Positions 3,226-22,401 of a DNA stretch of 64,000 nt are shown piece after piece (the stretch's first letter is position 1; every line of letters begins with the position of its first letter). The position numbers and the translations under genes were made by a program. Source of the DNA: Cenarchaeum sp. Its GTDB lineage: Archaea; Thermoproteota; Nitrososphaeria; Nitrososphaerales; Nitrosopumilaceae. Location of the stretch: contig CBDESU010000002.1 of the NCBI GenBank assembly GCA_965242695.1, positions 224,001 to 288,000 of the forward strand. The letters run 5' to 3'. Below the pieces are notes generated by a model. It saw nothing but the letters and a program-made list of their open reading frames with translations. It searched no databases and was not told the DNA's origin.

Positions 3226-3349
3226 CACGGGCGGTTGCATGTGATGCCGCCTTTGCCACATGCTAGACGCGGGATCGCGCTCAAGGAGCGCCCGCTCCGC
3301 GGCGTCCATGCTGGTACGGCGAAGGCAGAAGGGGCGGGGCGAACGACAC

Positions 3350-5113
3350 ATGGTTATCTATAGCCTGGCGTACGACGACATAATGGACATGCTCGGGACG
3401 CTAAACCGCCGTCATTGCGTGAATGCCACGGTAATGAACAAGGGCCAGCTAGAAGCGGCCCTAGAAAAACCGGATTTGTCCATGTTCGGCAAAGTGTTCT
3501 ATCCCGAACTGCATCAAAAGGCCGCAATTCTTATGGAGTCTCTCTGCAAATCCCACTGTCTAAGCGACGGGAATAAACGCACATCGATGATGGCGGCGGA
3601 GTACCTGGTCAGCGCAAATGGCGCTACGCTCGTACTTCCGCTAAAATCCATACGCCTAACTGTCGATTGCGCCATGGACAAAGACGACAAGATGTCCGAC
3701 GAGCTGATCATGTGGTTCAAGACCCACATCGCTCAAGACCCGATCCAGCTCTCCATAATGTTTGAAGAGCTGATCGAGGAGCGGTTGATCGTGACCACGC
3801 TACTGAGCCAAGGCGAGTATGACAAGGCTGAGAAGATTGTCGACAAATGGCTTGTTTTTGACAATTATCCCGAAAGCAAGGCGATGTGGGATGATCTGAC
3901 GGACAAATGGAAAAAGCGAGACAGATCGATGGGATCTGAGCCGGGGGCGTCACGATCGAATTTTTCTCCATGGCTGTCTATAAGCCCCGAACTCAGAATA
4001 GAGGACAGTGTTAACCTTGCATCGATCCTGCCTGATGCCAGAGCAACCAACCCCGTTTATACGGAACACAGCATGAGCGAGCTAAAAAGGGTAGAAAATT
4101 ACATACAGGCGCAATCTGCACAGAGTAGTACGTCTTCGCTGCAGCGGGCAGCAGGCATCTTGGAAGGCTTCCACAGTCACAAGAATGCGTGTTTGGTTTA
4201 CGACAAGTTGATCGAAGTGGAGGGGAGGAGCAATCGCATTATGCATCGCAAGTTGTTTAACTTAGTCTTTAGCGAGCAATACAATGAAGCGCTGGCCTTG
4301 TCGAACCAGTTGCTAGAGTTGGATCAAAACTCCGTCCACGTAAACAGACTCAGAGCCAGAACGTGCGACATCATGGGAGATCGTTTGTCGGCACTGGAGT
4401 CTGCAAACCGAGTCCTAAAACAGATCCCGGATGATCTCCCCATGCTTAAAATCAAGGTGGACATAATCCGTGAGGATTATCCGTCGGACGCCACAAAACT
4501 GGACAGGGAAATATACCGCCTAGACCCCGACGATCTCGTGTCAGCTAAAAATATGGCGGTGTCGCTATCCGATCAGGGCAGAAACGAGGAAGCCATAAAA
4601 CTATTTGACAAAATACTGTCCAGAGCGCCCCGAGATGCCGCGGCGCATTATAGCAAGGGGCTATGTCTGTCACGCTTGGACAAAAACGAGGATGCGCTGA
4701 CATATTATGAAAAATCACTGCAAGTCGACCCAAGATATGTCATGGCGTTAATTAACATGGGAGCCATCTATATGAATGATGACAAAAAGAATGAAGCGTA
4801 TGACTGCCTATCCAAAGCGCTGAAATTGAGCCCCGAACACCCCATTGGTCTGCTAAATATGGGGGTAGTGCTACTGTCGCAGGAAAATGCTCAAGAGTCT
4901 ATCAACGTGCTCAACAAACTCCTTTCGGTCGATCATCTTAATGCCAACGGCATGTACTTGCTAGCACAGGCATACGTAAAACGTGATAAAACAGTCCACT
5001 CGCTTGACATTCTAGAGCGCCTTGTAAACATAGACCCGTCCTACAAATCTCGGATAAAAAATGACCCCAATTTTTATCAATTGCGAGACTTGCGCCGCTT
5101 TCAAAATCTGTAG
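3350..5113 (+). CDS. Doc/Fic-family toxin domain fused to C-terminal TPR repeats (~587 aa)
   Basis: Doc signature LEAALEKP...FYPELHQKAAILMESLCKSHCLSDGNKRTS, then multiple TPRs (AAAHYSKGLCL, ALINMGAIY, GLLNMGVVL). Visibly AT-richer than flanks. Start set at ATG 3350. Confidence 0.85.
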   Translation: MVIYSLAYDDIMDMLGTLNRRHCVNATVMNKGQLEAALEKPDLSMFGKVFYPELHQKAAILMESLCKSHCLSDGNKRTSMMAAEYLVSANGATLVLPLKSIRLTVDCAMDKDDKMSDELIMWFKTHIAQDPIQLSIMFEELIEERLIVTTLLSQGEYDKAEKIVDKWLVFDNYPESKAMWDDLTDKWKKRDRSMGSEPGASRSNFSPWLSISPELRIEDSVNLASILPDARATNPVYTEHSMSELKRVENYIQAQSAQSSTSSLQRAAGILEGFHSHKNACLVYDKLIEVEGRSNRIMHRKLFNLVFSEQYNEALALSNQLLELDQNSVHVNRLRARTCDIMGDRLSALESANRVLKQIPDDLPMLKIKVDIIREDYPSDATKLDREIYRLDPDDLVSAKNMAVSLSDQGRNEEAIKLFDKILSRAPRDAAAHYSKGLCLSRLDKNEDALTYYEKSLQVDPRYVMALINMGAIYMNDDKKNEAYDCLSKALKLSPEHPIGLLNMGVVLLSQENAQESINVLNKLLSVDHLNANGMYLLAQAYVKRDKTVHSLDILERLVNIDPSYKSRIKNDPNFYQLRDLRRFQNL

Positions 5114-6685: not shown

Positions 6686-7156
6686 TCACCACATCTCGTA
6701 CTTGCTGAGCGCGGCGTACTCGGGGTACCTTGCATAGACGTGCCTCAAGAGGTCGGGCAGGGCGGTGTCGTTGAACTCGGCCTTTATTTCCTCAAGCTTG
6801 TCGTACGCCTTGTTGAAGCCGTATTCTTCGTACCGCGGATCGGACAAGAGCCTGCCGGCGGTCTCCCTGCCCGCCTCGGTGATGGTATAGGTGTACACCG
6901 TCCTGGCGGGGCGATCAGAGTCTGACCTGCCCTCGCCTATCAGCCCGTCCGACGTGAGCGCGTCGATGTCCCGCTGAAGCGTCTTCGAGTACGGCCCGTA
7001 GTCGAACGGGGCAAAGCCCAAGTTGGGAATGCGCTCATCGTCCTTGAGGTGCTCCCGCATGAGAAAGATCATCTTTTGGAAGCGCGTCCGGCCTCGGACG
7101 GGCGCGCCGCCGCATGCATGCGCCAAGAGGAGCGGGTATACCTGCCTAGGAGTCAA
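6686..7156 (-). CDS. YwgA / DUF4065 (SocA/Panacea-like) protein (~156 aa)
   Basis: GRTRFQKMIFL...FAPFDYGPYSKTLQRDIDAL...YTITEAG...LLRHVYARYPEY. TTG start overlaps the stop of the upstream TrmB-like gene. Confidence 0.75.
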   Translation of the reverse strand: MTPRQVYPLLLAHACGGAPVRGRTRFQKMIFLMREHLKDDERIPNLGFAPFDYGPYSKTLQRDIDALTSDGLIGEGRSDSDRPARTVYTYTITEAGRETAGRLLSDPRYEEYGFNKAYDKLEEIKAEFNDTALPDLLRHVYARYPEYAALSKYEMW

Positions 7157-7886
7157 GATCCGGCACCCTAACCTCCTTGCCTGCCTTAAACCCCCTCTTG
7201 AACCTTTCCACATGCGGCGCCGCAAAGCTGCGATCCCTGACCAGCAGGGCGCAGTCGGGCGCCTCAAACCTGGCCATGACGACCTCGTCGTCAATCAGGC
7301 AGCACGTCTCAATGTCCCTGCACGTGCGGGCCTCTGCCCCGCGCATGTAGGGCTCGCCCGACATTGAAAGGGACTCGGGCACGGCCAGCTCGACCTTCAC
7401 CGTCTCCGCCTTTTTTGCCAGCATCTCGGCATGCGCATCAAGCCACCGCAGGTCGCGATCCGCTATCCTCACCGACTCCTTGCAGCCGGCCAAGAGCTCG
7501 TGCATCTGCACCTGTATGCCTCCCATGCCGTACACCGTCCAGCAGGCCGCGCTCCGGGCACCCTGCGCGTGCCTCTCCTCGTACGCCTCTTCGGCCGCGC
7601 CGACTGCCGCGTCCCTTGATGCCTGAAGGGCCGTGAGCTCCTTGTCGAGGACCCCCCGCGGGTGTTGCGCGTCGTACAGGGCGGGCCTGTCGCCGATCTT
7701 TACGATGACGCCCCTCTGGTTGAGCTCCTCAAGGACGGAGTATATCTTGCCCTGGGCGACCCCCGACCTAGCAGCCAGGTCGGCTGGCTTCATCACCCCC
7801 TGCTCGACCAGGGTGGCATAGACGGATGCGTTGCCCTCGCTCCAGCCGATCCCCTTTAACGCCTCGACGAGGCGATCGCGGGCCAT
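7146..7886 (-). CDS. TrmB-family transcriptional regulator (wHTH + effector-binding domain)
   Basis: LKGIGWSEGNASVYATL...LAARSGVAQGKIYSVLEELNQRG...RPALYDAQHP is the TrmB N-terminus. TTATAA at 7911-7916 lies 25 nt before ATG 7886. Confidence 0.88.
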   Translation of the reverse strand: MARDRLVEALKGIGWSEGNASVYATLVEQGVMKPADLAARSGVAQGKIYSVLEELNQRGVIVKIGDRPALYDAQHPRGVLDKELTALQASRDAAVGAAEEAYEERHAQGARSAACWTVYGMGGIQVQMHELLAGCKESVRIADRDLRWLDAHAEMLAKKAETVKVELAVPESLSMSGEPYMRGAEARTCRDIETCCLIDDEVVMARFEAPDCALLVRDRSFAAPHVERFKRGFKAGKEVRVPDLDS

Positions 7887-8005
7887 CCGGCCGCGCCGCC
7901 TCATGCTCCCTTATAACAATACTATCGTACGCGGGGCCAACCTGTGTTCATCCGTGAGTTTTTTTGAGTGCTTTTATATAGGGGGGTAGAAGGCCCCCCG
8001 GCAAG
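7887..8005. promoter_or_regulatory. divergent promoter region with two TATA boxes
   Basis: TTATAA (7911-7916, leftward gene) and TTTATATA (7973-7980, rightward gene) each sit ~25 nt from the start codon in a 119-bp AT-richer gap. Confidence 0.7.
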
Positions 8006-8302
8006 ATGAGGAAAAATGTCATCGTCATCGATGCCGCCAACGCCCGAGAGGCAAGCGTGAGCGTCGATGACGGCGAGACAATCGACTCTGCCCTCGACAG
8101 GGGGTACGAGGAGCTCGGAGAGACGCGCCGCCCCAACGCCCATTTTGTGGACGGAGAGGGGAATAGCCTCGACGGCAAGCTGAGCGAGCCGGTCCGCACG
8201 ATCGAGACCGACCAGGACGGCAACACGACCATCGAGATCAGGAGCCCCACAGGGGGCGCCTGCCTTTTTTCTATCGGAGGGGACGGGGATGGCGCCTGCT
8301 AG
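8006..8302 (+). CDS. ubiquitin-like (beta-grasp) protein with internal GG and short C-terminal extension (BilA-like)
   Basis: 98 aa acidic protein with a beta-beta-alpha-beta pattern ending IEIRSPTGG|ACLFSIGGDGDGAC. First gene of an E2-JAB-E1-JAB operon. Confidence 0.7.
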   Translation: MRKNVIVIDAANAREASVSVDDGETIDSALDRGYEELGETRRPNAHFVDGEGNSLDGKLSEPVRTIETDQDGNTTIEIRSPTGGACLFSIGGDGDGAC

Positions 8303-8819
8303 GCCCGACACCGCGATCGCCCGATCGCAGTTCAAAGAGGACCTGATCAAGGTCGCGGGCAGCAGGCGCGCCAGGCAGCACGGCTGGCTGTTCAAGCCGG
8401 ACTACAAGGGCCTGCGCCTGCGCGTCGACATGTGGTCGCTTGACAAAGGCTGCGAACGGCGCGACGACTACCACATAGACATGGACATGTCGTACTACCG
8501 CGACTGGCCGCCCGGCGTGACCTTTGTCAACCCGGACACGGGATCCTTCGATCCGAACAGGGACGCGCGGTGGCTTCCCGCAAACCCCGCCATGAACCCA
8601 CCCGGCGTCAATATCGGCTACCACCTCTCGTACACCCTGACCGACGGCGTGACCAAGCAGATGGTCTGCAACTCGATGGTGCTAGAGTACTACCAGTCGA
8701 ACCATGCGCCCAAGCCCGAAGAGGTGTGGGATTCCAGGCGCCACACCCTGCATGCGACCCTGACGGTGCTCCAAGACCTGCTAAGGGAGCCGTACTACGG
8801 AGGTCGACGCTCGCAATGA
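8289..8819 (+). CDS. E2/UBC-like conjugating enzyme (BilB-like)
   Basis: UBC-like YHIDMDMSYYRDWPPGVTFVNP and candidate catalytic Cys in QMVCNSMVLEYYQSNH...W. Overlaps the Ubl stop, with ATGA coupling to the next gene. Confidence 0.75.
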   Translation: MAPARPDTAIARSQFKEDLIKVAGSRRARQHGWLFKPDYKGLRLRVDMWSLDKGCERRDDYHIDMDMSYYRDWPPGVTFVNPDTGSFDPNRDARWLPANPAMNPPGVNIGYHLSYTLTDGVTKQMVCNSMVLEYYQSNHAPKPEEVWDSRRHTLHATLTVLQDLLREPYYGGRRSQ

Positions 8820-9364
8820 GCCCCTCTCAGGACGCTATCCCGATCGCGGCTGCGGGCGACGGCAAAAGGACGCTCCTTGTCCAGAAAAGCCTCGTCGAGG
8901 AGACGTACCGCATGTTCGAGCGAAACAGGTGCAGGCAGAGGGTGTCGGTCGCCTACTGGTACGGGACAGGACGGCCGCAACTCGGGACAAGCGCCGTCCT
9001 GTCCTTGGGAGTGCCCCGGGCCGAGTGCAATGTGGTCGACTACCATGTGGAAGAGCCAGAGATCGCCCGCCTCGGCCACGCAATAAGGAGACAGGCGCCG
9101 GGGTCGATGGGGTCGCTGGCGCAGTTCTATACCCAGCCGAGCGGGGACGGACGACACTCCAAGAACGAAGACCTCAACGCCATCAGCCTGCGCGACGGCT
9201 TTCTGTCCCTGGCCGCGCCCTACTACGGGAAGAGGACGGAGCCGCTCATGGGCAACATAACCGTGCACGAGTGCTGGAAGGGCCGCTGGCGCGTACTGGG
9301 AGAGTCGGAGCGCCCTGGGCGCATCAAGATCATCGACAGCCTTGTCGACATGGAGGCGGGCTGA
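8816..9364 (+). CDS. JAB/MPN-domain protein lacking catalytic residues (pseudo-deubiquitinase, 182 aa)
   Basis: Paralogue of 11107-11847, but RVSVAYWYG / QFYTQP...HSKNED replaces EESVVYWYG / QFHTHP...HSDHDD. ATG 8816 overlaps the E2 TGA. Confidence 0.8.
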   Translation: MSPSQDAIPIAAAGDGKRTLLVQKSLVEETYRMFERNRCRQRVSVAYWYGTGRPQLGTSAVLSLGVPRAECNVVDYHVEEPEIARLGHAIRRQAPGSMGSLAQFYTQPSGDGRHSKNEDLNAISLRDGFLSLAAPYYGKRTEPLMGNITVHECWKGRWRVLGESERPGRIKIIDSLVDMEAG

Positions 9365-11110
9365 ATGGAAAGGCACCTGGACAGCCGCGGGGGCCGCCTG
9401 CCTCGAATCGGTGCAGGGGCCAAGAGGGTGGCCGTCTCCATATCCGAGGCGGCCGCGGAGGGTTCCGAGGGGCAGGCCATGCTGTGGACCGCCTGCAACC
9501 TGCTGTGCAGGCTAAAGGGAGTCGTCGGCGAGCTGGCAGTCTGCGTCCCAGAGGGGGTCGACGTGGCGGCAGGCGCTCCCCCTCCCGCGCCAGGGCGGGG
9601 CGATCTTGGCAGGTCCCTCGTCGACTCGCTCGACGCGTGCTCGCGCGGCTGCGATGTGCGGCTCGCGCAGGGCGAGCCGGAGCAGGGGCTTGATGCCGCC
9701 GTGCTGCTCGGCACGGGCGCACCAGCCGGCACGGGGGCGGCATTCGAGGTCCATGCGGCCTGCTCGGGATGGCTGGCATACGTGTGGCAGGGCTCGAGAC
9801 CCGCGCCGGATGCGGCCGCGCCTAGCGGCGACGGCCACAACCCGTTCGGCGCGGCGACGGCGGCCTGCCTTGCGGTCGGAGAGGTGTTCAAGCGCCTAGG
9901 CGGCCTGGACGTCAAAAAGGGCCGGTTTGCCGAGTCGCTGTGCTTTTCGACCTACGATCTAGAGGTGCATGGAGGACGGGAGGATGCCCCGGCCAACCCG
10001 GCCCTGCCTGCGCATATAGATCTCGGGCGGATTGCGGTCTGCGGCGCCGGCGCAGTGGCGCATGCGTTCTGCCAGGCGATCGCCTCGCTTGGCGAAGTCA
10101 AGGCCGACCTGCTCGTCGTCGACAGAAAGTCCAACTACGCCCTGGGCGACGAGTCCGTCGAGCCGACCAACCTGGCGCGGTACGTCATGGCGACTGGCGC
10201 CGACATAGGGCGCCCCAAGGCCGAGGTACTGTGCGGGAGGATCCGCTCGCCCTGCATACGGGCGGAGCACACCGACGAGGGGATAGAGGCCCTGGCCAGC
10301 AGCGGCGGGCTGTCCGGCGAGGGGCACGTCGTCTCGTGCGTCGACAACAACAGGGCGCGGCACGCCATCCAGGGCTGCATCCCCCGCATCATACGCGGCG
10401 GCAGCGTGTACGACCTGTCCTCCAGGGTGTCCGTATACGACATGGCAGGCGGCACCGCGTGCCTCAGGTGCGAGAACCCCGTCGAGGCGGGCGAGAGCGA
10501 CGAGGGCGTGGCCGAGCGGCTGCGCGACATGGAGCCGGATCGGCGGCGGGCCGAGGCGGGGCGCGCCGGCGTAGACCCCGGCGACCTGGACAGGTACCTA
10601 GAGTCGCCCGCGTGCGGCGCGCTCTCGGGCGATGCGCTGCGCAGGCTCGCCGCCGCCCTTCCCCCCGAATTCTCGGTCAACTTTGCGACCATGCTGAGCG
10701 GCACCCTCCTCGCCGCCGAGGCGTTCAAGGCGGCCTGCCCGCCCCTGCGCCCCGCGCTGGACGGGGCGGCGCGCTCGGACATGTTCTACAGCTTTTGGAA
10801 CTGCCGCCACCGGCTCTCGCGCACGGCGCCGTTCCCCGAGTGCTGGTGCCGCGCAGGGGGCACGACGCCGAGGGACATACATGGAGAAAAGTGGGGGCCG
10901 AAGGCGGCAGCGGCTGGACGGCAAGGGGCAAGCCGCGCCCTGCGCGGCGGGGCGGCGCCGGAGGCGGGCGGGGCGGCAGGAGACGAATGGCGTCCGGCAG
11001 GGGGCCCGAAGGGGAGGGGCGCAGGAGTGGCCGGCCGACTCGAACCCCGCCTCCACGTGCGCCCGCAAGCTGGGGCGGCAGGGCTGCGGCGCGGAGCGTG
11101 GCGCGCATGA
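9365..11110 (+). CDS. E1/ThiF-family Ubl-activating enzyme with N-terminal inactive-adenylation-like domain (BilD-like)
   Basis: IAVCGAGAVA, VEPTNLARY, RPKAEVL, SCVDNNRAR, Zn-site CLRC...ECWC, candidate catalytic Cys in SPACG. N-terminal domain has NPFGAATAACLAVGEVFK. Confidence 0.88.
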   Translation: MERHLDSRGGRLPRIGAGAKRVAVSISEAAAEGSEGQAMLWTACNLLCRLKGVVGELAVCVPEGVDVAAGAPPPAPGRGDLGRSLVDSLDACSRGCDVRLAQGEPEQGLDAAVLLGTGAPAGTGAAFEVHAACSGWLAYVWQGSRPAPDAAAPSGDGHNPFGAATAACLAVGEVFKRLGGLDVKKGRFAESLCFSTYDLEVHGGREDAPANPALPAHIDLGRIAVCGAGAVAHAFCQAIASLGEVKADLLVVDRKSNYALGDESVEPTNLARYVMATGADIGRPKAEVLCGRIRSPCIRAEHTDEGIEALASSGGLSGEGHVVSCVDNNRARHAIQGCIPRIIRGGSVYDLSSRVSVYDMAGGTACLRCENPVEAGESDEGVAERLRDMEPDRRRAEAGRAGVDPGDLDRYLESPACGALSGDALRRLAAALPPEFSVNFATMLSGTLLAAEAFKAACPPLRPALDGAARSDMFYSFWNCRHRLSRTAPFPECWCRAGGTTPRDIHGEKWGPKAAAAGRQGASRALRGGAAPEAGGAAGDEWRPAGGPKGRGAGVAGRLEPRLHVRPQAGAAGLRRGAWRA

Positions 11111-11847
11111 GCGGATACTGGCGGCCGAGCCACGAGGTCCTGCGGGCCAGCAAGAGCGGCAGGCGCCTTGCCGTGCCGAGGCGCCTGCTGGACGCGACGT
11201 ACGACATATTCGCCGAGCACGGGGACCGCCGCGAGGAGTCCGTGGTCTACTGGTACGGGGCCGAGTCGCTCCGCACCGGCCGCGGCGGAAAGATCGACTT
11301 GGTCGCGGCGGTCGGGGTGCCCCGCGGCAGGTACGCCGAGGGGCAGTTCGCGGTGCAGGCCGACGACGCGGCGCGCCTGGGCAGGGCGATGATGTCGCAG
11401 TCCCTCTCGTGCCTGGCGCAGTTCCACACGCATCCCGGCCGCGGCACCGAGCACTCCGACCACGACGACGGGAACGCGATCAGCATGCGCGACGGCTTTC
11501 TGTCGCTCGTCGCGCCCTGCTACGGGGGCGCAGGGCGCTCCCTGCGGGACGGCGTGACCGTTCACGAGGCCTGGGGGCGCCGGTGGTGCGTGCTGGGCGG
11601 CGGGGCGGCCGAAAAAAGAATCTTTGTCATTGACGACATTGTCGACCAGCGGCAACCGCTGCGCGGAGAAAGGGGCGGCGGGGCCGAGGCCGGGACGGGC
11701 GGGGCGCCGCCTGCGCCGCCCGTACTGCGCCGCGCCGGCGCTGGGGACGCAGACGGAACGGCGCCTGGGCGCGGCGCGGCCGGGCCGCTCTCCCGCGCGG
11801 CATCAGTCATACTATGCAGGATAAAGAGGGCTTTCGGCAGGGCGTAG
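11107..11847 (+). CDS. JAB/MPN+ metallo-isopeptidase (deubiquitinase-like, BilC-like, 246 aa)
   Basis: Intact JAMM motif E(ESVVYWYG)...HTHPGRGTEHSDHD. ATG 11107 overlaps the E1 TGA. Low-complexity C-terminal tail. Confidence 0.85.
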   Translation: MSGYWRPSHEVLRASKSGRRLAVPRRLLDATYDIFAEHGDRREESVVYWYGAESLRTGRGGKIDLVAAVGVPRGRYAEGQFAVQADDAARLGRAMMSQSLSCLAQFHTHPGRGTEHSDHDDGNAISMRDGFLSLVAPCYGGAGRSLRDGVTVHEAWGRRWCVLGGGAAEKRIFVIDDIVDQRQPLRGERGGGAEAGTGGAPPAPPVLRRAGAGDADGTAPGRGAAGPLSRAASVILCRIKRAFGRA

Positions 11848-11989
11848 GCAGATCCCGCGTGGGGCGCCGCTGGCCCGGAGGGGCGCGAGGGTGGCGGCGC
11901 GGGGCGCCGTCCCCGGGCGGTGCGGCAGAGCCGCCCGGCGGGCGGTCCTGTCCATGGGGGTGCGGCGCGCCGCTGGCCGCACTTGTGGC

Positions 11990-12606
11990 GCTGGCAGGCG
12001 CGGCCGATGCGACAAGGCTCCTGCCCAGGCACATAATCCTGCTGTACATCTGGTACGCCAAGACGAACGCCTACTAGGACAGCATCGCCATTCAGAGGAG
12101 GATCGGGCAGAAGACTGCGAGTCGCTACATAGCAATCGCCAAGGATGTGCTGTCCCGGACGCTCCCGACGCAGTGCAAATACGGCGGGCACATCCAGAGG
12201 CAGGCCCACATGCGCGAGATGAAAAAGTACCTGCCGGGCCGGACCGCGGCACGCGCATCGAGGACGGCATGCTCAACAGGATGCAGCGGTCGGGGCAGAA
12301 GGGCCCTCACGACAGGTCGTACAACGGGCGCAAAAAGGCCTACATGGCAACACGCTGGGCAGGTTCAGCGCCCGCGGCGAGATGGTCCCGGTGACTCCGA
12401 CCGACAAGGGCACATGCAACGACGTCACCATGGCGAGGAAGTACTGCCTGCACCGGGTCATTGCCACGCAGTGGCTGCACGATCCACACGCGCCGCAGAT
12501 GGACCGCGTGCACCGCATCGACGACACGGAGTTCGCATGCATCGAGACGGAAAAGCCCTGCGCGGACACGTTCGGGCCGGGCCAGAACCACCCCCGCGTC
12601 GACTAG
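11990..12606 (+). pseudogene. IS5/ISL2-like (HTH_Tnp_4 / DDE_Tnp_4) transposase remnant
   Basis: Fragments ILLYIWYAKTNAY*DSIA..IGQKTASRYIAIAKDVL, IEDG..RMQRS..SYNGRKK and KGTCNDVT, interrupted by a stop and frameshifts. Confidence 0.55.
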
Positions 12607-12705
12607 ATCGCAGTCGACGACACGGCCCTCTGGCGCGCCGCATACTGTGGCAGTGAGCGGCTCGGCCACCACCACTAGCGTGCCGGCGATCGGCTACGTG
12701 TACAA

Positions 12706-13677
12706 TCAATGATCGTCAAGTGTAGTCTGAACCGCAGACATGTTTTCGCTACACATCTTGTCCAAGAGAAATTCCCTGACATTCTTTTGGCGTGGTAGTG
12801 CATTAATGCGGTACCTGCCATCAGGAAGTTTTTTCGCTAATTTCATTTTATATAGCGTTTTCAGTCCGCGTGTTATCCAGCGAGTCCTTATCTGACTTTG
12901 CTCACCTTGTAGCCCCGACCAGCTTGCATAGTAGTTGTCAAGTCTACTTTTGAGATCTTCAACTGTCACTGTAATGTAGCCCTTCTTGTCAGCAATCAAT
13001 GGCAGTACGTTTTGGTAAAGCATGGACAGCACATAAAGGTCTGGAGGACTCGCTCTTACAAACAATCTTTTTTCATACCTGGCATGCGTCACCTCTATAG
13101 GCATCTCAATGCAAGCGTTCAGGCGTTTGTCGAAATACTTGCAGCCGGTACTTCCACTATCAAGGCCAAGTCGTATCACCTCCCGGGTCTTTCGACCCTT
13201 TATTTTTACTTCCTCCCAATGACCCAAACATAGATTTGTTGCGGTGATGGATGCACCGCTCTTATTTTTTTGCATCAGGACGCGGGCGTGTTCTACATCA
13301 ACCTTACGGACAAGAAGCAGTATAGAGTGCTCCCTGATTCTACCGTTATTAGTCTTCCATCCCGTCTCAATTTCGGCATATTTGGCGATTTGTTCCCCCA
13401 GGTCACGAACCATGTGCTCCTGGTCCTGCGGCAACGACGACTTGATTTCGCAGACTATTCCTTTTCTGTCATTGTCACACTGGAAAATTGCATCGGGCTG
13501 GACATCTTTTGATGCAGCCGTGCGCATTGTCGGCTCGCTTACCTTGAAGCTGCACTCCTCGTTGGGGCCAAAGGCATCTTTCAGTCCCACAGATACTACC
13601 ACTGTGGCATAGTATGCATCGTATTCAGCGTTGCACCGTTCTCTGCAGTTTTCTGCGGAGTGCTCGTCACCATTCAT
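12706..13677 (-). CDS. PD-(D/E)xK nuclease-like protein with probable C-terminal winged helix (323 aa)
   Basis: VQPDAIFQ...GIVCEIKSS motif; C-terminal WITRGLKTLYKMKLAKKLPDGRYRI. AT-rich; overlaps the upstream gene by 11 nt. Confidence 0.65.
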   Translation of the reverse strand: MNGDEHSAENCRERCNAEYDAYYATVVVSVGLKDAFGPNEECSFKVSEPTMRTAASKDVQPDAIFQCDNDRKGIVCEIKSSLPQDQEHMVRDLGEQIAKYAEIETGWKTNNGRIREHSILLLVRKVDVEHARVLMQKNKSGASITATNLCLGHWEEVKIKGRKTREVIRLGLDSGSTGCKYFDKRLNACIEMPIEVTHARYEKRLFVRASPPDLYVLSMLYQNVLPLIADKKGYITVTVEDLKSRLDNYYASWSGLQGEQSQIRTRWITRGLKTLYKMKLAKKLPDGRYRINALPRQKNVREFLLDKMCSENMSAVQTTLDDH

Positions 13678-14713
13678 ACTCGCCGATCACGCCCTCGTAA
13701 AATGCAGATGCCAGGAACTCTGTAAGTCGCAGCAACGACGCCTCGGATGTCCGGATCTGCGGTATTATGGCCAGTGCATCGTCACCCACAGACCTTACGG
13801 CAATTGTGGAGTTGTCCATTCTGTCCACTATGGATATGTAGAGGTGTGGGTTGCCGGCATGCACTATCACATAGTTGCAGTGTGTATACTCATCGATCAG
13901 ATTGCAAAACCGCTTCATGTCGTCATCGTCTGCGAACACGTCCCTTTTGTACTTGATCAGCAAAGGCTTCGGTTCTTTGTCAGCGCGTTCGCTCCGGCTG
14001 CGGTGCGAAAAGCGGTTGCGGCGTTCTAATCCATTGTCTATGATCGGGCGCAGTACGTTGGCGTATATCCCCTCTACGTTTCCACTGTGGATAGTGATCA
14101 GCCCCTTGCGGGATACAGTTATGTCCATGGCCTCGCGTCCATCTGTGAATGCGCGTAGGCTGTCAATCACCAAGTTCTTTTTTTCGGCGTCTTTGAATAC
14201 ATCTTCGACAGCGTCATACTCGCGGTTCGCAGCAGTTTTGTCCCATTCCAGAGAGGTCTTTGGCATGGTGCCAATGGTCCTTTTCTTCACGGATTTCTTG
14301 TGCTTTAGTGACGCGCCTGTATTCGCCTCAAACTCTGCAAGGATGCTCCTGATTTTTCCAGACTCGGTAAACGGTGCAAGCACCTCCGGCCCTAGTCTCT
14401 TGACGATGCGCTGTACTATGTCAAAAAACCCACCTCCTTCGCCGCTGAACAGGAGCACATGGCTGTCCTGCTGTAGCGAGTGGAGCCTTCCGTTGGTGTC
14501 TTCGCATGTCACTGAATATATGCTATGGGTGAACGAATCGTGCTGGTCCTTGGAGATCATTGCCACCTTGGCGACAGCATGACTCACTGTGGTGATCATG
14601 CTGGAAATGTCCCCCTCCGACATGAGGCACTGGACCTTTAGCGATCTGCACTCCCTCATGTAGGAATTGACCGCCATGGCTAGATCCAGCGGCATGTCTA
14701 TCGAGTCGCTCAC
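13667..14713 (-). CDS. hypothetical protein (348 aa), first gene of an AT-rich two-gene module
   Basis: Long open frame with normal globular composition, coupled to the nuclease-like gene. No motif recognised. Confidence 0.75.
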   Translation of the reverse strand: MSDSIDMPLDLAMAVNSYMRECRSLKVQCLMSEGDISSMITTVSHAVAKVAMISKDQHDSFTHSIYSVTCEDTNGRLHSLQQDSHVLLFSGEGGGFFDIVQRIVKRLGPEVLAPFTESGKIRSILAEFEANTGASLKHKKSVKKRTIGTMPKTSLEWDKTAANREYDAVEDVFKDAEKKNLVIDSLRAFTDGREAMDITVSRKGLITIHSGNVEGIYANVLRPIIDNGLERRNRFSHRSRSERADKEPKPLLIKYKRDVFADDDDMKRFCNLIDEYTHCNYVIVHAGNPHLYISIVDRMDNSTIAVRSVGDDALAIIPQIRTSEASLLRLTEFLASAFYEGVIGEYEW

Positions 14714-15646: not shown

Positions 15647-18361
15647 CTACGGTATCAGCACCGTCTGTATCCTGGTCTCGGCCGGATCGGCGGGCTGCTC
15701 TGGGAACCTGCCGCCCTCGAGCTCGACTGACGCTAGCGCATCGACCGTAGCATGCCCCTCCGTCACCATGCCAAACACCGTGTACTGCCCGTCGAGCCAC
15801 GGCGCATCCCCTAGAACGACAAAGAACTGCGAGCCGGCGCTGTCGATGTCGGCCCCCCTTGCCATCGACACCGCGTACTTTGTGTGCGTCGCCATGCCGC
15901 TGATCTCGGCGGGTATCGCGTAGCCTGGGCCGCCGGCCCCCCACGTCTCGCGCTCGCCCCCTATGGTATTTGGATCCCCGCCCTGCATGACAAACCCGGG
16001 GTTTATCCGGTGGAATATCGTCCCGTCGTAGAAGCCCGCGCTGGCCAGGCTCCTAAAGTTCTCCACCGTGCGCGGCGCAATGTCCGGCCTCAGCTCTATC
16101 GTAAAGTCGCCTGCGGCGGTCCTCACCACGGCAGTCCCGAGCGCCATCCTCTGCTGCTCGGCGATCATCTCCTGCACCTCTTCCATCGTCGGCACGTCCG
16201 GATCGTACTCCTTGTTCACCTCGTACACCAGAACGGCCGTCACCGGCCCCGGCGACTCGCGCCAAAACGTCTCGGACGCGTACGCGAGCCGGAACGGGCC
16301 CGTACCGTCGGGCGGGTACTTCAAGTCCATCGCGTACACGGGCGTGTACCCCGGGACGTACGAGCCGGACTGCTCGTTGGTCATCGGGTTTACGTACGCG
16401 ATGACAGAGTAGGGGATGATCCTGCCGGCCAGGGTGCTGTCCCAAAAGTGGTCAGTCCCCGACAGGCCGTCCACATGCAGGTATTTTTCCACGGGATCGT
16501 CGGCGGCAATCCTCATGAACCACTGCTTCTTGCTCTCGTCGCCGCCCCCGTTGAGCAGGTACGCCCCGACGGGCTCGCTCTGTATCTTTGTCCCCGCCAC
16601 GAATATCAGCACATAGTCGGCCCCCATCTCGTTGAGCCTCTTCCACGCCTCGTCCGGGTCGGCGAGCATCGTCCGCGCGATCTCGCGGATCGCCGACGTG
16701 TCCATCGTCGCGTTGTCGGCAAGCGACGTGCGGTTTCCAAGCGTCGTAATCCAGTACCCGTAGTCCCACCAGGCGGCGACCACGGATCCCTCGGGCGTCT
16801 GCGTCCGCATCCACTCGAGCGAGTCCGGCCAGTCGCCGAACACGGCGCCAAAGTTGGTCCCCCCGTTGAGTATGGTCGGCGGCGCCCGCACGCTGTCGAC
16901 CCAGTTGCCCTGTATGGGGACGACGGTAGGCACGAGAAGCAGGCCGACCACGGCCGAGACGAACGCGATCTTGCCGGCAAGCGGCATGCCGCGCACGTGC
17001 CGCTTTGTGCGCACGTCGGGGCGGAGGGCCTCAGACGCCAGCACTGCAAGCCCTATCGACGAGAGCACGATGACGGCAAGCGATGCGAACAGCTCGAGGC
17101 GGATGAACGTAGAGCTCACGTACGCGCCGGCCACGCCGAATATGAGCGCAAACGCGATCATGTCGGCCGGCAGGCGGATCCTGTACGACCGTATGCGCTC
17201 CCTGTTCGAGAATATCAGCCAGGCGCCGATCCCCGCGAACACCATCAGTATCGACAAAAAGAAGAACGACTGCGCGGTCGTCGTCGTGGCGTGCTCGGCG
17301 ACCGAGTCGACGAGCGGGTCGACCGACCTGAGGAACGGGTTGAGCGCGTTCTGGTACCGGAACGAGGGGAGCGCTATGAACCCCGCCGCGGCGTTGGCGG
17401 CGAGCACGCCGGCGCCGGCTGCGACCGTCCCGCCCAGGAAGATCAGGCCGTTGCGCAGGGCGGCGGCCCTGCGCGAAAAGCGCTGCAGCAGCGACGAGGC
17501 GGCGAGGTACGCGGCCGAGCCGCCGACCAGCACGCCGCCGATCCCCTCGACGAACCCGATCCCCGGCCTCTCAAAGAGCGGCACCGTCCCGAGGAACGCG
17601 ACCGCGAACACTGGCACAGACCACGCAAGGAACGAGTGGTCGCGGCGCAGCAGCGGCAGCGCCAGCAGGAACAGGCACAGGGGCACCACTATGTACTGGA
17701 TGCCGCCCCACGACGCCAGTCCGAACGTGAGCATGACGCCGCCGGCGGCCATGCGGGCCCCGGCGATCGCCCGGCCCCGGGGCGTCCCTCCCCCGTCGCC
17801 TCCCCTAAGCGCGCTCAGGAACAGGTACACGCCGAGCAGGCCGTAGAACAGGCCGACCGGCTCGGACTTGAACCAGCCGATCGTCCCCCTCACTATCACG
17901 GGCACGGACACGGCAAAGAGCAGGGACGCGAACAGGCCGGCCGTCGTCCCGCCGATCACCCTGACCAGCGCGAACACGACGACCGCCGTCAGCGAGCCGA
18001 ACACGGCGGGCACCAGTATCGTAAAGTCGTACAGGGGCATTCCGCCGCCAAAGGCGGCGTACGTGTAGGCGGCCGTAATGTGGAGCATGGTCTGCGAGGT
18101 AGCCGAGATGTCGCGGCCGTTGGGGAACCAGCTCATCGTGTCGTGCCAGTCCAGGTACGCCGGCAGGCCGTGGTCCACGAGGTACTCGGTGGCGCGGTAG
18201 TTGAAGAACGGGTCGAACTCGTTGAGCTCGTACCCAAACTCGGCAGGCTGCGCCCGTATCAGGAACGAGACGGAGAATGCGGCGGCGAGCACACCGACGA
18301 CGAGCAGGTGGTGCAGGCGCAGCTCGAACCGGCCCACGGTCGCCAGGCGGGCGTTGGACAT
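15647..18361 (-). CDS. aglB: oligosaccharyltransferase STT3/AglB fused to C-terminal cyclophilin-type PPIase (~904 aa)
   Basis: EFDPFFNYR, SVAEH, AAWWDYGYWI, DNATM, DESKKQWF with many TM helices; then APRTVENF..FYDGTIFHRINPGFVMQGGDP..SAGSQFF..WLDGQYTVFG. Confidence 0.95.
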   Translation of the reverse strand: MSNARLATVGRFELRLHHLLVVGVLAAAFSVSFLIRAQPAEFGYELNEFDPFFNYRATEYLVDHGLPAYLDWHDTMSWFPNGRDISATSQTMLHITAAYTYAAFGGGMPLYDFTILVPAVFGSLTAVVVFALVRVIGGTTAGLFASLLFAVSVPVIVRGTIGWFKSEPVGLFYGLLGVYLFLSALRGGDGGGTPRGRAIAGARMAAGGVMLTFGLASWGGIQYIVVPLCLFLLALPLLRRDHSFLAWSVPVFAVAFLGTVPLFERPGIGFVEGIGGVLVGGSAAYLAASSLLQRFSRRAAALRNGLIFLGGTVAAGAGVLAANAAAGFIALPSFRYQNALNPFLRSVDPLVDSVAEHATTTTAQSFFFLSILMVFAGIGAWLIFSNRERIRSYRIRLPADMIAFALIFGVAGAYVSSTFIRLELFASLAVIVLSSIGLAVLASEALRPDVRTKRHVRGMPLAGKIAFVSAVVGLLLVPTVVPIQGNWVDSVRAPPTILNGGTNFGAVFGDWPDSLEWMRTQTPEGSVVAAWWDYGYWITTLGNRTSLADNATMDTSAIREIARTMLADPDEAWKRLNEMGADYVLIFVAGTKIQSEPVGAYLLNGGGDESKKQWFMRIAADDPVEKYLHVDGLSGTDHFWDSTLAGRIIPYSVIAYVNPMTNEQSGSYVPGYTPVYAMDLKYPPDGTGPFRLAYASETFWRESPGPVTAVLVYEVNKEYDPDVPTMEEVQEMIAEQQRMALGTAVVRTAAGDFTIELRPDIAPRTVENFRSLASAGFYDGTIFHRINPGFVMQGGDPNTIGGERETWGAGGPGYAIPAEISGMATHTKYAVSMARGADIDSAGSQFFVVLGDAPWLDGQYTVFGMVTEGHATVDALASVELEGGRFPEQPADPAETRIQTVLIP

Positions 18362-18652
18362 CAAGCGAGCGGCGCGGGCGGCGCGGCGCATATTACCTTT
18401 TGTGGGGCGCGGGCCGCGGCTGCGCATGGGTCTGGACGGCATCCAGGCCGCGGCGTCTCCCTGTCGGCGGGCGGGGCGATCGCGGGCAGGGGGCGCCGCC
18501 CCTTGTCCGGCCCGCCCCCTCCCGCCGAGGGACGGGGGCGCCCTTCCCTCCCGGCCCGCGGCAGGCCGCGTGCGCGATGCGCCCCGGGGCCGCATCCGCG
18601 GCCCGGCACTGCGCCGGAAAGATTATTGAAGACGGGGCGCGGGCCGCCCCCG

Positions 18653-19708
18653 TTGAGGGTATGGTTCGACATTCTCACGCCCAAGCAGGTCGTCTTCTTC
18701 GAGCCCATGGTGCGCAGGCTTAGAAGGGGCGGCCACAGGGTGCTGTGCACGTCGCGCTCGTACAGGGAGGCGACCGAGCTGGCCAGGGTGCGCCGCTTCC
18801 CCACCGTGCAGATCGGCAGGCACGGCGGGGGCACCCGGGGCGGCAAGCTTGCGGCCGGCGCGCGGCGCATCAAGGAGCTGGTTCCGGCCGCGTCCAGGTT
18901 CAGCCCCGACCTTGCGGTCAGCTTTTGCTCGCCCGACGCGGCGTTCGCCGCGCACGGCCTCGGAATCGACCACATTGCGTTCATCGACGCGCCGCACTCG
19001 CACAAGGTCCTCAGCCTCACCGCGCCGCTCGTCGCAAAGCTCCTCGTGCCGTGGATCGTGCCCAGGGCGGCCATCGCGCGGCACGGCATGCCGCGCGCGG
19101 ATGTCGTCCAGTACAGGTCGATAGACGGCGCCATAACGGCAAAGAGGCCTGCTGCGCGCGGGGGCGGCCGCCTCCCCGTCGATCCGTCAAAAAGGACGAT
19201 ACTCGTCAGGCCCACCGAGACGCAGGCGTCGTACACCGACGGCTCGAACGTCGCCGACGGCGCCATCAGGGCCCTGGCCGGGGCGTTTCCCTCCGAGAAC
19301 ATACTCGTGCTGTCCCGGTACGCCGAGCAGACCAGGCGGATCAGGTCCATGTTCGGCAGCGCCGTCACCGTAACCGGCATGGCGCACGACGGAAGGCACC
19401 TGCTCGACAACTGCGACGTGTTCGTCGGGTCGGGCGGGACGATGACGGCCGAGGCGGCCCTGTCGGGCGTCCCGACCGTGTCCTACAACGGCGTCCCCAA
19501 CGTCATCGAGCGGTACCTTGTGCGCAGGCGCCTTGCAAGCAGGGAGACGACCGAGCGGGGCATACGGCGGCGCGTGGCGGGCATGCTCGCCGCCGGCGCG
19601 GCCGGAAAGAGGGCCGCCGCGGCGCGGGCCCGCAGCGAGGTGGCATCCATGGAGGACCCGTTCGACTGCCTTGCAAGGGCGGCGGCATCCATCGGCAGGC
19701 CGCTGTAG
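18653..19708 (+). CDS. DUF354 family GT-B fold protein (LpxB-related archaeal protein)
   Basis: RVWFDILTPKQVVFF, IGRHGG, SFCSPDAA, GSGGTMTAEAALSGVPTVS. TTG start at 18653 inside the long track ORF. Confidence 0.85.
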   Translation: MRVWFDILTPKQVVFFEPMVRRLRRGGHRVLCTSRSYREATELARVRRFPTVQIGRHGGGTRGGKLAAGARRIKELVPAASRFSPDLAVSFCSPDAAFAAHGLGIDHIAFIDAPHSHKVLSLTAPLVAKLLVPWIVPRAAIARHGMPRADVVQYRSIDGAITAKRPAARGGGRLPVDPSKRTILVRPTETQASYTDGSNVADGAIRALAGAFPSENILVLSRYAEQTRRIRSMFGSAVTVTGMAHDGRHLLDNCDVFVGSGGTMTAEAALSGVPTVSYNGVPNVIERYLVRRRLASRETTERGIRRRVAGMLAAGAAGKRAAAARARSEVASMEDPFDCLARAAASIGRPL

Positions 19709-19771
19709 GCCGCGCGGGCGCGGGCCGCGGCGCAAAAGAACAGTTATTGAGACTCTTGGCGGGGCGGCCCC

Positions 19772-21262
19772 GTGGCAGGAGGCGGCGATGCGGGCGGGAC
19801 GGCCCTTGCGGCGACGCTAGAGGCCGTGCGGGCCGGCCGGTACGCCGTCGAGGTGTACGGCCTCGGGTACGTCGGGCTCCCCCTTGCCGTCCGCCTCGCC
19901 AGCGGCGGCGGCGTGCGCGTGGCCGGAATCGACGTCGATGCGGGCCGCGTCGAGAGGCTGCGCGCCGGGCGCCTGATGAGCTCCGAGGCGCACCTGGCCG
20001 GCGAGTTCGGCAGGGCCGTCGAGTCGGGGCTCCTCTCCGTCGGGGGCGGCCCCCCTCCGAACGCCGTCGTCCCCCGAATCGGCATCATCTGCGTCCCGAC
20101 CCCGCTGCCCGGCGGGCCCGAGCCGTCGTCGGCGAGGGTCATGGCGGCGGCCGAGGCGTTTGTCGGCGCCGGCTCTGGGCCCGGCGATGTCGTCATTATA
20201 GAGAGCAGCGTCGGCAGCGGCACGACCGACACGGTGCGCCGCATGATCGAGTCGCGCGGCCTGGCCGTCGGCAGGGACTGCGGGCTGGCGTTCTGCCCCG
20301 AGAGGATAGACCCCGCAAACAAGAGGTGGGGCCTGGAGAACATACCGCGCGTCGCGTACTGCTCGGACGACCTGACGTACGGCATCGCAAGCGAGGTGTA
20401 CAGGCGCGTCAACAGCGCGAGCCTGTTTCGGGTAAGCTCGGCCGCCGCCGCCGAGGTCGTAAAGTCGTACGAGAACGCGTTCCGCCTCGTCAACATATCG
20501 CTGGTCAACGAGCTGGCCGTCCTGTGCGACGCGCTCGGCATAGACTCGCGCGAGGTCATCGCGGCGGCGGCCACCAAGCCGTTCGGGTTCATGCCGTTCG
20601 CGCCGGGCGCCGGCGCCGGCGGCCACTGCATACCAAAGGACCCGAGGTTCCTGTCCGAGGCGGCAAGGGAGTCGTCGGGCGGCCGGCCGTTCACGACAAT
20701 CGACAACGCCCTTGCGACCAACGCCGCAATGCCCGAGTACGTGTGCGGGCGCATACTCGGCAGGGTCGAGTCGATGGGGCTGGCCAGGACGGCCATGGTA
20801 TGCGGCATGGCCTACAAGGCCGACGTCGAGGACATGCGGGACTCGCCGGGCTTTCGCATCGCGGCGGGCCTGGCCGGCCTCGGCTTCAAGGTGCGCACGT
20901 TCGATCCCTACTACGACGAGGCGCTGCAGCCCAGGTACCTCCTCGAGAACGGCATGGGCGGCGGCCCGGCGCGGTTCAGGGCCGCCGGCGAGCTGAGCGC
21001 GGCCACGCTGCGCGGAACGAGCTGCCTGTGCATAGTCCAGCACCACGCCAGGGCGCGCCGGCAGGTCGAGGAGGCGTACGCGGCCTCGCTCGTCCCCGTC
21101 GTATACGACTGCCAGAACAGGCTCATGCCGGTCGCCGGAAGCCGCTCCATCCTCGACAGGCTCGGCGCGCCGGCGGCGGGGGAGGGTGGAGGCGGGAACG
21201 GGGCCGCGGAAGGCCCGGCCGGCAATACGGTTATTGCCCGCGGAGGCGGCGGCGCCGCATGA
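19772..21262 (+). CDS. nucleotide-sugar dehydrogenase (UDP-HexNAc 6-dehydrogenase, WecC/WbpA family)
   Basis: GLGYVGLPLA, ICVPTP, IESSVGSGTT, FCPERIDP, KSYENAFRLVNISLVNE, GGHCIPKDP, AYKADVEDMRDSP. Confidence 0.93.
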   Translation: MAGGGDAGGTALAATLEAVRAGRYAVEVYGLGYVGLPLAVRLASGGGVRVAGIDVDAGRVERLRAGRLMSSEAHLAGEFGRAVESGLLSVGGGPPPNAVVPRIGIICVPTPLPGGPEPSSARVMAAAEAFVGAGSGPGDVVIIESSVGSGTTDTVRRMIESRGLAVGRDCGLAFCPERIDPANKRWGLENIPRVAYCSDDLTYGIASEVYRRVNSASLFRVSSAAAAEVVKSYENAFRLVNISLVNELAVLCDALGIDSREVIAAAATKPFGFMPFAPGAGAGGHCIPKDPRFLSEAARESSGGRPFTTIDNALATNAAMPEYVCGRILGRVESMGLARTAMVCGMAYKADVEDMRDSPGFRIAAGLAGLGFKVRTFDPYYDEALQPRYLLENGMGGGPARFRAAGELSAATLRGTSCLCIVQHHARARRQVEEAYAASLVPVVYDCQNRLMPVAGSRSILDRLGAPAAGEGGGGNGAAEGPAGNTVIARGGGGAA

Positions 21263-22401
21263 GGGTCTGGTTCGACGCGCCGGCGGCCAGGGACCTGCTC
21301 TTCCTCGAGGGCGCCGTCTCGAGGGTCGCCCGCCGGCACGAGACGCTGCTCACGACGTCCGGCGATCCGACCGCGCTTGCCTTGTCCCGCGCGCGGCGGC
21401 TGGGGGCGCGGCGGGCCGGCGGGCCGGCTGCGGCTGCGGCTGCGGCCCATTCCCCGGCAGGCCGCGCCGGGGACGGGAAGGGGAGTGCGGCGGCCAAGAG
21501 GAGGGCCAGGCTCGATGCAAGGGTGTCAAGGCTCGGCCCCTTGGCTCGCCTGGCGTCCGGCTTTTCCCCCGACCTTGCCGTGAGCGTCTCGTCGGCAGAG
21601 GCGGCCCGCGCGGCCTTTGGCCTTGCCGTTCCCCATGTCGCGTTCGGCATGGACGAGCCGGGCGACGACGAGCTTGCCAGGCTGACGGCGCCGCTGGTCC
21701 AAAAGATGATCATACCGCGGCATGCCCCCGCCGCGCCGCTCGTCCGGCGCGGGCTGGCCGCGGCCGACATCGTGCGGTTCAGGGGGACGATCGCCTCGGC
21801 AACGGCGCGGCGCAAGCCGGCGCCTGCGGAGGGCGGGGCGAAGCGGCGGCTGCAGCAGAGGGCGGTCTCGGCCGCGGAGGGATACGTCCTTGCCAGGCCT
21901 CCCGCCGGCGGGGGCGCCGCATGGGCAAAGGAGGTCGCCGAGGCCGTCCTTGGAGGGCGCCGCCTGGCCATGGTCGCCGTCCTGCCGAGGCCCGGGCAGG
22001 CAAGGGGCCTTAGGTCCTCGCTCGGCATTGCAGCAAGGGTCATCGCCGGCGGGGTGCACGACGGCATGCCCCTGCTCGGCGCATGCCGCGCCTTTGTCGG
22101 GGCGGCCGGATCGACCATGGCATTCGAGGCGGCCCTGCGCGGCGTGCCGGCCGTCGCGTACGGGCCTGACGCGGGCGGGGCCCGCGCGGATGCCACCGGC
22201 GAGTCGCGCCTTGTGCGGCTTCGCCTGCTGTCCAGGGCCAGCACGGCGGCGGGCCTGCGAGCCAGGATCGGGGCCCTGCTGTCCGCTGGTCCCGGCGCGC
22301 GGGCAAGGGCCAGGGCCAGGGCCAGGGCCGAGCTGTCGTCCATGGAAGAGCCGTTCGCGGCGCTGTCAAGGGCAGCGCGGGCGGCCGGGGCAAGGCTGTA
22401 G
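21259..22401 (+). CDS. divergent second DUF354-like protein (380 aa)
   Basis: MRVWFD..., FSPDLAVS, AAFGLAVPHVAF, TMAFEAALRGVPAV and SMEEPF align with 18653-19708. ATGA-coupled to the dehydrogenase. Confidence 0.75.
   Translation: MRVWFDAPAARDLLFLEGAVSRVARRHETLLTTSGDPTALALSRARRLGARRAGGPAAAAAAAHSPAGRAGDGKGSAAAKRRARLDARVSRLGPLARLASGFSPDLAVSVSSAEAARAAFGLAVPHVAFGMDEPGDDELARLTAPLVQKMIIPRHAPAAPLVRRGLAAADIVRFRGTIASATARRKPAPAEGGAKRRLQQRAVSAAEGYVLARPPAGGGAAWAKEVAEAVLGGRRLAMVAVLPRPGQARGLRSSLGIAARVIAGGVHDGMPLLGACRAFVGAAGSTMAFEAALRGVPAVAYGPDAGGARADATGESRLVRLRLLSRASTAAGLRARIGALLSAGPGARARARARARAELSSMEEPFAALSRAARAAGARL

Follow-up and report, generated by a model that had tools for sequence, protein, structure and literature searches.

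Among prokaryotic systems, operons of the Bil type come closest to eukaryotic ubiquitination, and the deubiquitinase (DUB) that they encode is an essential and poorly understood component. The subject here is an operon of this kind in a stretch of 64,000 nucleotides from Cenarchaeum sp. (assembly GCA_965242695.1, contig CBDESU010000002.1, positions 224,001 to 288,000 of the forward strand), called the window below, which encodes two proteins of the JAB/MPN family: JAB2, whose catalytic motif is complete, and JAB1, in which the catalytic residues have been replaced. In described Bil systems the gene order bilA-bilB-bilC-bilD, corresponding to ubiquitin-like protein (Ubl), E2, DUB and E1, is reported to be constant, and BilC pre-processes BilA (Chambers et al., preprint). 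Disruption of the DUB active site inactivates the Bil system (Hor et al., preprint).

The operon of the window, at 8006-11847 on the + strand, is tightly packed and contains five genes in the order Ubl, E2, JAB1, E1 and JAB2. It shares with Type II BilABCD, for example that of Ensifer aridi (PDB 8TYX, 8TYZ and 8TZ0), the order Ubl-E2-JAB-E1 with overlapping or abutting genes, a Ubl with residues past the conserved Gly that the DUB must remove, and a divergent regulator upstream, which is of the TrmB type here and of the CapH/CapP type there. It differs in its archaeal host, in having five genes instead of four, in the dead JAB of the third slot, in the second JAB after E1 and in an E2 that is weakly recognisable. 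The JABs of the window also have a conserved C-terminal strand (profile positions 167-179) beyond the region aligned to BilC, which covers positions 17-166 of the 179 in the profile. The E1 matches Pfam ThiF (4e-11) and the PADLOC model of BilD (5e-11, residues 21-337), and its sole match among all PDB sequences is the Ensifer aridi BilD (8TYZ; 1.7e-15, residues 105-386). The JAB-family profile likewise has a sole match among all PDB sequences, the BilC of Ensifer aridi (8TYX; 8.5e-15). JAB2 itself is matched by the PADLOC model of BilC (1.3e-9) and, below the cut-off, by Pfam Prok-JAB (3e-4); PADLOC finds nothing in JAB1, E2 or Ubl. Judged by its sequences, the operon is a distant or diverged archaeal relative of Type II BilABCD (6C/CEHH) and not a plain member of that type.

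JAB1 and JAB2 align across 180 residues with 40% identity (E 4e-38). A preliminary description of this DNA had proposed that the two form an active/inactive pair reminiscent of eukaryotic MPN+/MPN- heterodimers, and every shared motif that it listed is found in the alignment. The JAB2 motif is complete, with the glutamate E44 and the segment HTHPGRGTEHSDHD, which corresponds to HxHx7Sx2D (JAMM). At the aligned catalytic positions JAB1 has V43, Y105, Q107 and E118, and only the serine, S115, is kept; the changed codons are read directly at 8942-8944, 9128-9130, 9134-9136 and 9167-9169, in agreement with the earlier statement that all four positions are altered. V43 and E118 fall on E33 and D106 of BilC in the profile-to-PDB alignment, and the BilC replacements E33A and D106A abolish cleavage of a Ubl-GFP substrate in vitro (Chambers et al., preprint). 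The JAB1 frame is intact and, as had been noted, closely packed with its neighbours: the E2 stop and the JAB1 start overlap in an ATGA at 8816-8819, and the ATG of E1 directly abuts the JAB1 stop, with no gap (9362-9367). A second ATGA, at 11107-11110, joins the E1 stop to the JAB2 start.

The dead state is a property of a clade. Four orthologues of JAB1 are known (P0006-P0009 in our numbering of family proteins; 67-88% identity), and in all five members the catalytic Glu is replaced by Val and the first His by Tyr. At the second His position three members have Q, one has R and one has L, and the Asp position holds Glu in four of the five, P0009 still having Asp. Since its members have this state in common, the inactivation is older than the divergence of the small JAB1 clade. 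The motif is present in all five orthologues of JAB2 (P0011-P0015, 77-91% identity), and the earlier claim of an active and a dead paralogue stands. A profile search of the whole library gives 538 proteins with E no higher than 0.001. Of 168 family proteins outside the JAB1 clade that were inspected for it, 165 contain HxH(6-8)SxxD, with P0030, P0131 and P0140 as exceptions, and the catalytic Glu occurs in all 133 aligned full-length active members. An alignment centred on JAB1 yields no relative in the genome, metagenome or viral contigs scanned, and no relatives were found in the viral contigs. The orthologues of JAB1 and JAB2 pair up by longest contigs of equal size (7643, 16549 and 259406), and most likely the three pairs adjoin on those contigs too.

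JAB2 and its orthologues carry, after the catalytic domain, a linker rich in Gly, Ala, Pro and Arg and a conserved basic C-terminal helix, a tail that is absent from the other family members retrieved in the JAB2 search. The last 17 residues are 65-94% identical among the orthologues and the linker 50-73%, gaps included. In the AlphaFold2 model of JAB2 the core scores above 95 in the predicted local distance difference test (pLDDT), and the helix at 230-244 is of low confidence. Possible roles of this tail are those of a docking peptide or of a membrane-binding helix.

The place of JAB1 in the operon is that of the DUB in Bil systems. The JAB-family profile matches 16 of the 401 genomes of the class, including that of the window, which is the only one among them with two adjacent JAB matches; G004 also has two, about 0.9 Mb apart. 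In the other genomes the JAB is immediately followed by E1 at 15 of 16 places (at L014 and L020 the JAB was placed by the family profile and not by tblastn), and at the sixteenth, L021, the contig continues for a further 970 bases, in which no E1 was found. At three of the longer loci (L004, L005 and L027) the order is Ubl-E2-JAB-E1; the JAB there is active, and E1 is not followed by another JAB. Because relatives have a single active JAB directly before E1, JAB1 occupies the ancestral DUB slot and JAB2 is the extra gene; the position assigned to JAB1 in the preliminary description agrees both with these loci and with the Bil gene order. JAB1 and JAB2 are each monophyletic (100/99) within one archaeal subfamily of 14 rows (94/98) of the Bil-type family. 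In the best tree JAB1 groups with the motif-bearing P0010/P0031 and P0016/P0017, and JAB2 lies outside (90/88); a single clade of JAB1 and JAB2 is not rejected by the approximately unbiased test (p 0.186). JAB2 may have arisen by tandem duplication or from an older or transferred copy. The same genome contains a third, degenerate JAB-family match (L024, G000:C2:426055-426342) with an internal TGA and an E1-like match just downstream, which looks like a decayed second Bil-like locus.

Structural models point to a preserved fold and to a possible partnership between the two proteins. AlphaFold2 models JAB1 with confidence (pLDDT 90.3, predicted template modelling score 0.85), and the best PDB match of the model in Foldseek is BilC in a Ubl complex (8tyx_B; E 8e-13, template modelling scores 0.75/0.83, root-mean-square deviation 2.0), followed by Rpn8/Rpn11, AMSH and CSN6; BRCC36-KIAA0157 chains are also among the matches. 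The complex of JAB1 with JAB2 residues 1-185 was modelled with an alignment of 144 rows for each. It obtains an ipSAE score of 0.80 (0.80, 0.73 and 0.82 in the runs), against 0.00 for the best of three controls; 58 of 80 solved complexes and 2 of 110 mismatched pairs attain the score mark, counts that are approximate here since own alignments were used. The runs share at least 92% of their contacts, with a partner pLDDT of at least 79. The modelled interface is reciprocal: JAB2 173-185 packs on JAB1 62-69 and 82-90, JAB1 171-181 packs on JAB2 67-74 and 87-95, and the first helices lie alongside. Several cautions attach to this model. Conservation of the interface residues does not exceed that of the other positions (Fisher p 0.46 for JAB1 and 0.55 for JAB2), a pseudo-symmetric interface fits homodimers of close paralogues equally well, near relatives of a real partner can also attain the mark, and the score may reflect a remembered likeness to the solved MPN dimers of the PDB. 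The complex prediction proposed in the preliminary description supports binding in silico and does not demonstrate it, and the model cannot separate the heterodimer from homodimers; a JAB1:JAB2 heterodimer is predicted at roughly even odds.

The reading favoured here, with a probability of about 0.5 for the statement as a whole, is that JAB2 is the working DUB and that JAB1 is a retained pseudo-DUB, probably dimerising with JAB2 and maybe tethering it near E1. One part of it, a retained pseudo-enzyme together with a compensating active copy, is likely in its own right. A dead gene in the third slot implies that JAB2 is needed, because Bil needs a working DUB, and JAB1 and JAB2 co-occur. The original DUB gene, JAB1, would have become a pseudo-enzyme, and the active JAB2, added after E1, would supply the peptidase. 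By removing the 14-residue tail behind the Gly-Gly of Ubl, JAB2 would enable E1 to adenylate Ubl, and it would also take Ubl off its targets. JAB1 would be unable to bind the catalytic zinc or to activate water, yet would keep the JAB fold and the family surface. It would pair with JAB2 in a pseudo-symmetric dimer, the C-terminal strand of each lying on a strand (residues 58-65) and a helix (80-93) of the partner, and the resulting DUB, in which one site is live and the other dead, would probably derive from an ancestral homodimer. A stronger form of this proposal is tentative and rather doubtful: an obligate live/dead JAB heterodimer would have arisen independently from a homodimeric DUB, the dead subunit, next to E1, activating or positioning the live one.

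The retention of JAB1 has to be weighed against the possibility, which we consider quite unlikely, that the gene is a functionless and recently inactivated remnant, its frame surviving because the clade is young, stops are rare at 66-74% G+C and translation is coupled to that of E1. The clade is indeed small, with five JAB1 sequences from uncultured archaea. Open frames are cheap in such G+C-rich DNA and are weak evidence here, the region having many long spurious open reading frames (ORFs) in every frame. On matched tree paths JAB1 has changed its amino acids 2-3 times faster than JAB2 (0.50 v 0.24; 0.31 v 0.10), the drift of the second His position concerns a former zinc ligand, and P0007, one of the five JAB1 proteins, is without the first 32 residues. 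The types of replacement (mean BLOSUM62 compared with a single-nucleotide neutral expectation) are indistinguishable from neutral, although p is 0.17 for the active JAB2 as well as for JAB1, and the ordinary conservation of the modelled interface also suits a remnant. The distribution of changes argues the other way. With the start Met excluded, 20 columns reach a conservation of at least 80% among the 133 active members; of these, JAB1 has changed 4/4 catalytic ones but only two of the 16 others (V133A and R180E), 14 being kept (Fisher estimate about 0.003). Its changes after the inactivation are concentrated where the active family itself varies (Mann-Whitney p 0.0076, with 60 of 164 columns variable), as are the changes of JAB2 in the same test (p 2.8e-6; 41 of 164). 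The JAB1 core is better conserved than disordered segments at the same locus: relative to the window, on contigs 7643, 16549 and 259406, identity is 88, 79 and 70% for the JAB1 core, 96, 88 and 87% for the JAB2 core, and 73, 50 and 54%, gaps included, for the disordered JAB2 linker; the disordered first 17 residues of JAB1 have 59, 59 and 41% identity in P0006, P0008 and P0009, and are absent in P0007. A contig of 4724 bases from another study spans 8097-12011 and is about 7.4-8.8% different; in the first piece of this contig, all 14 gap letters fall in E1 (9571-9577 and 10914-10940) and none in JAB1, and a second contig, 2.8% different, has zero gaps. Under a strictly neutral model one would expect about 4.6 nonsense changes (stop share 0.048, 92 distinct replacements), and there are 0 in the aligned parts of orthologues, which come from a protein search limited to sequences of 100-319 residues. 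The confident fold model points in the same direction. In our reading, these sequence comparisons suggest that JAB1 is under relaxed but real constraint, and the selected pseudo-enzyme postulated by the preliminary description receives support that is all indirect, from conserved columns, core identity, the lack of a JAB1 indel and the fold model. The roles that this description offered for JAB1, those of a DUB activator, Ubl reader, E3-like adaptor or decoy, are hypothetical.

The same retention evidence also serves another explanation, which is fairly unlikely: JAB1 would be a retained non-catalytic subunit for E1 and/or Ubl, holding the Ubl precursor or conjugate or stabilising E1, and JAB2 would act alone. 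Proteins in which the JAB of the third slot is joined to the N-terminus of E1 recur in this family, at least as P0035 (646 residues; the E1 part has 48% identity to the E1 of the window from residue 2, E 1e-121), P0104 (647 residues, E 5e-30) and P0118 (625 residues), and JAB+E1 fusions occur in '6e' Ubl operons (Iyer et al., 2006). These fusions, in which the JAB is directly N-terminal to E1 as JAB1 is, suggest that the JAB of this slot works beside E1, and JAB1 may also, or instead, bind E1 or Ubl; the fused JABs differ from it in keeping the catalytic motif, JAB1 being separate and dead. The abutment of the JAB1 stop and the E1 start, and the best structural match to a BilC bound to Ubl, speak for such a role as well. 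On the other side, there are 0 matches to a fused JAB1 among longer proteins, which is weak evidence, and the JAB1:JAB2 model passed its score mark; a role at E1 or Ubl and pairing with JAB2 are not mutually exclusive. That JAB1 is still an enzyme, with another chemistry or metal site, is most improbable. Ser115, His114, Asp119 and His151 are kept and Glu takes the place of the Asp ligand in four of five members, but the general-base Glu is Val in all five and both His ligands are gone. Because the second His position varies between Q, R and L, there is no conserved alternative set of ligands.

With JAB1 taken as a retained pseudo-DUB, the pair recalls the eukaryotic MPN+/MPN- pairs Rpn11/Rpn8, CSN5/CSN6 and BRCC36/Abraxas-KIAA0157, in which a zinc-competent protein and a dead paralogue likewise occur together; here the two are encoded together, and a heterodimer is supported by the complex model. 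The pseudo-DUB is essential for the activity of BRCC36 (PMC4579573). The origin is independent: the duplication that gave JAB1 and JAB2 falls within a single small subfamily of archaeal JABs of the Bil type, and any likeness to Rpn11/Rpn8 would therefore be convergent. Common descent with the eukaryotic pairs, as opposed to the convergence suggested in the preliminary description, is excluded by this placement (one subfamily of 14 rows, 94/98), so that the pair is convergent if the parallel is real. A further difference is that no larger scaffold complex is known here. Another parallel is offered by the E1 itself, since in the IAD/AAD pseudo-dimer of BilD an inactive copy of a fold joins an active one, in an arrangement that is homodimeric in relatives (Chambers et al., preprint); there they are two domains of one chain, whereas the JAB pair consists of two genes. 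In full-text literature searches and excerpts from the principal Bil papers, no prokaryotic Ubl operon was found to be described as having an active/inactive pair of JABs; the supplementary operon lists of the Bil papers lie outside these searches.

The tail of Ubl after its Gly-Gly contains 14 residues, including a second GG (8258-8302), compared with one residue at L004 and eight at L005. Relatives of Ubl are found by tblastn in the same slot at L004, L005, L026 and L027 (E 1e-6 to 1e-9), with GG followed by 1-8 residues, and Atlas gives sub-threshold leads only, to ubiquitin-like families (0.86). In the E2 family C127 and H139 are invariant in the five sequences. The closest Atlas look-alikes of E2 are the Metal_CEHH/DUF7665 clusters at 0.96, a lead; the PADLOC model of BilB matches one of the five family members (0.0046), the match of the E2 profile to BilB (8tyz_C) is not significant (E 0.48), and the E2 of the window itself has nothing significant in Pfam, PDB or PADLOC. 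The alignments of E1 relatives stop at residue 510-513, and the E1 of the window runs about 65 residues further in a low-complexity, G+C-rich extension. In this extension the diverged contig has many small indels (cluster at 10914-11080) and a replaced stretch of 68-69 bases, and in the JAB2 orthologue P0013 the JAB2 frame is open upstream. The extension is probably a former spacer that is now read through into the JAB2 start.

Table 1. Features of the operon and its upstream regulator in the window (aa, amino acids)
Feature	Position	Strand	Evidence
TrmB-family regulator, divergently transcribed	7146..7904	-	Pfam TrmB 1e-13
Ubl, 98 aa, ...SPTGG + 14-residue tail	8006..8302	+	tblastn relatives in same slot
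E2-like protein, 176 aa, Cys127 and His139 invariant	8289..8819	+	family alignment
JAB1, catalytically dead JAB/MPN domain, 182 aa, V43/Y105/Q107/E118	8816..9364	+	alignment, AlphaFold2, Foldseek
E1, 581 aa, ThiF adenylation domain at residues 222-458 after N-terminal part	9365..11110	+	Pfam, PADLOC, PDB
E1 low-complexity extension, beyond about residue 515	~10910-11110	+	relatives' alignments, indels
JAB2, whole gene, 246 aa	11107-11847	+	
JAB2 catalytic domain, residues 1-185, E44/H107/H109/S117/D120 intact	11107..11661	+	PADLOC BilC, motif
JAB2 tail, disordered linker 186-229 and basic terminal helix 230-246	11662..11847	+	identity, AlphaFold2

The TrmB-family gene is probably the regulator of the operon; a similar ORF of 251 residues, likewise divergent, lies upstream of the related operon at L005. 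The genome of the window comprises 3.89 Mb in two contigs and belongs to the same family as the genomes with loci L008 and L006, whose tblastn figures are identical to those of L004 and L005. No defence genes are recognised beside the operon, the neighbours being the TrmB regulator and a protein with Fic and TPR regions. The latter, of 617 residues, is encoded at 3260-5113 (+), about 3 kb upstream of the operon, and combines a Fic/DOC domain at the N-terminus (2.5e-8) with a long TPR array. Two very long ORFs at 15884-19708 and 18745-22401 (+) have about 960 bases in common, and in both a DUF354 match is confined to the region near the C-terminal end; the real genes are probably much shorter, and the long N-terminal portions are probably spurious frames that stay open in G+C-rich DNA. 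A repeat at 12013-12563 begins 166 bases past the JAB2 stop and has a second copy, 89% identical, at G000:C2:1117228-1117779. Contigs end at about 12011-12042 in all four sequencing runs, with a depth several-fold higher beyond, and G+C falls to 0.54 over 12001-14000. Possibly this repeat is a mobile or multi-copy element that marks the boundary of the operon. A sequencing run that contains a diverged copy is labelled sponge metagenome.

The occurrence of the JAB family in 16 of the 401 genomes of the class shows that Bil-like conjugation systems occur in archaea of the ammonia-oxidiser type. In this setting, the division of a DUB into a live and a dead protein gives a compact system that can be expressed, with two proteins about 180 residues long, and close relatives that keep the motif, apparently with a single JAB, are available for comparison. 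The pair could reveal roles of JAB proteins other than cutting, such as Ubl binding, E1 binding or dimerisation. It could also show how pseudo-enzyme partners are born and provide a testable case of this in a ubiquitin-like pathway. An obligate heterodimer, if true, would be a natural and recent replay of the origin of MPN+/MPN- pairs of the Rpn11/Rpn8 type.

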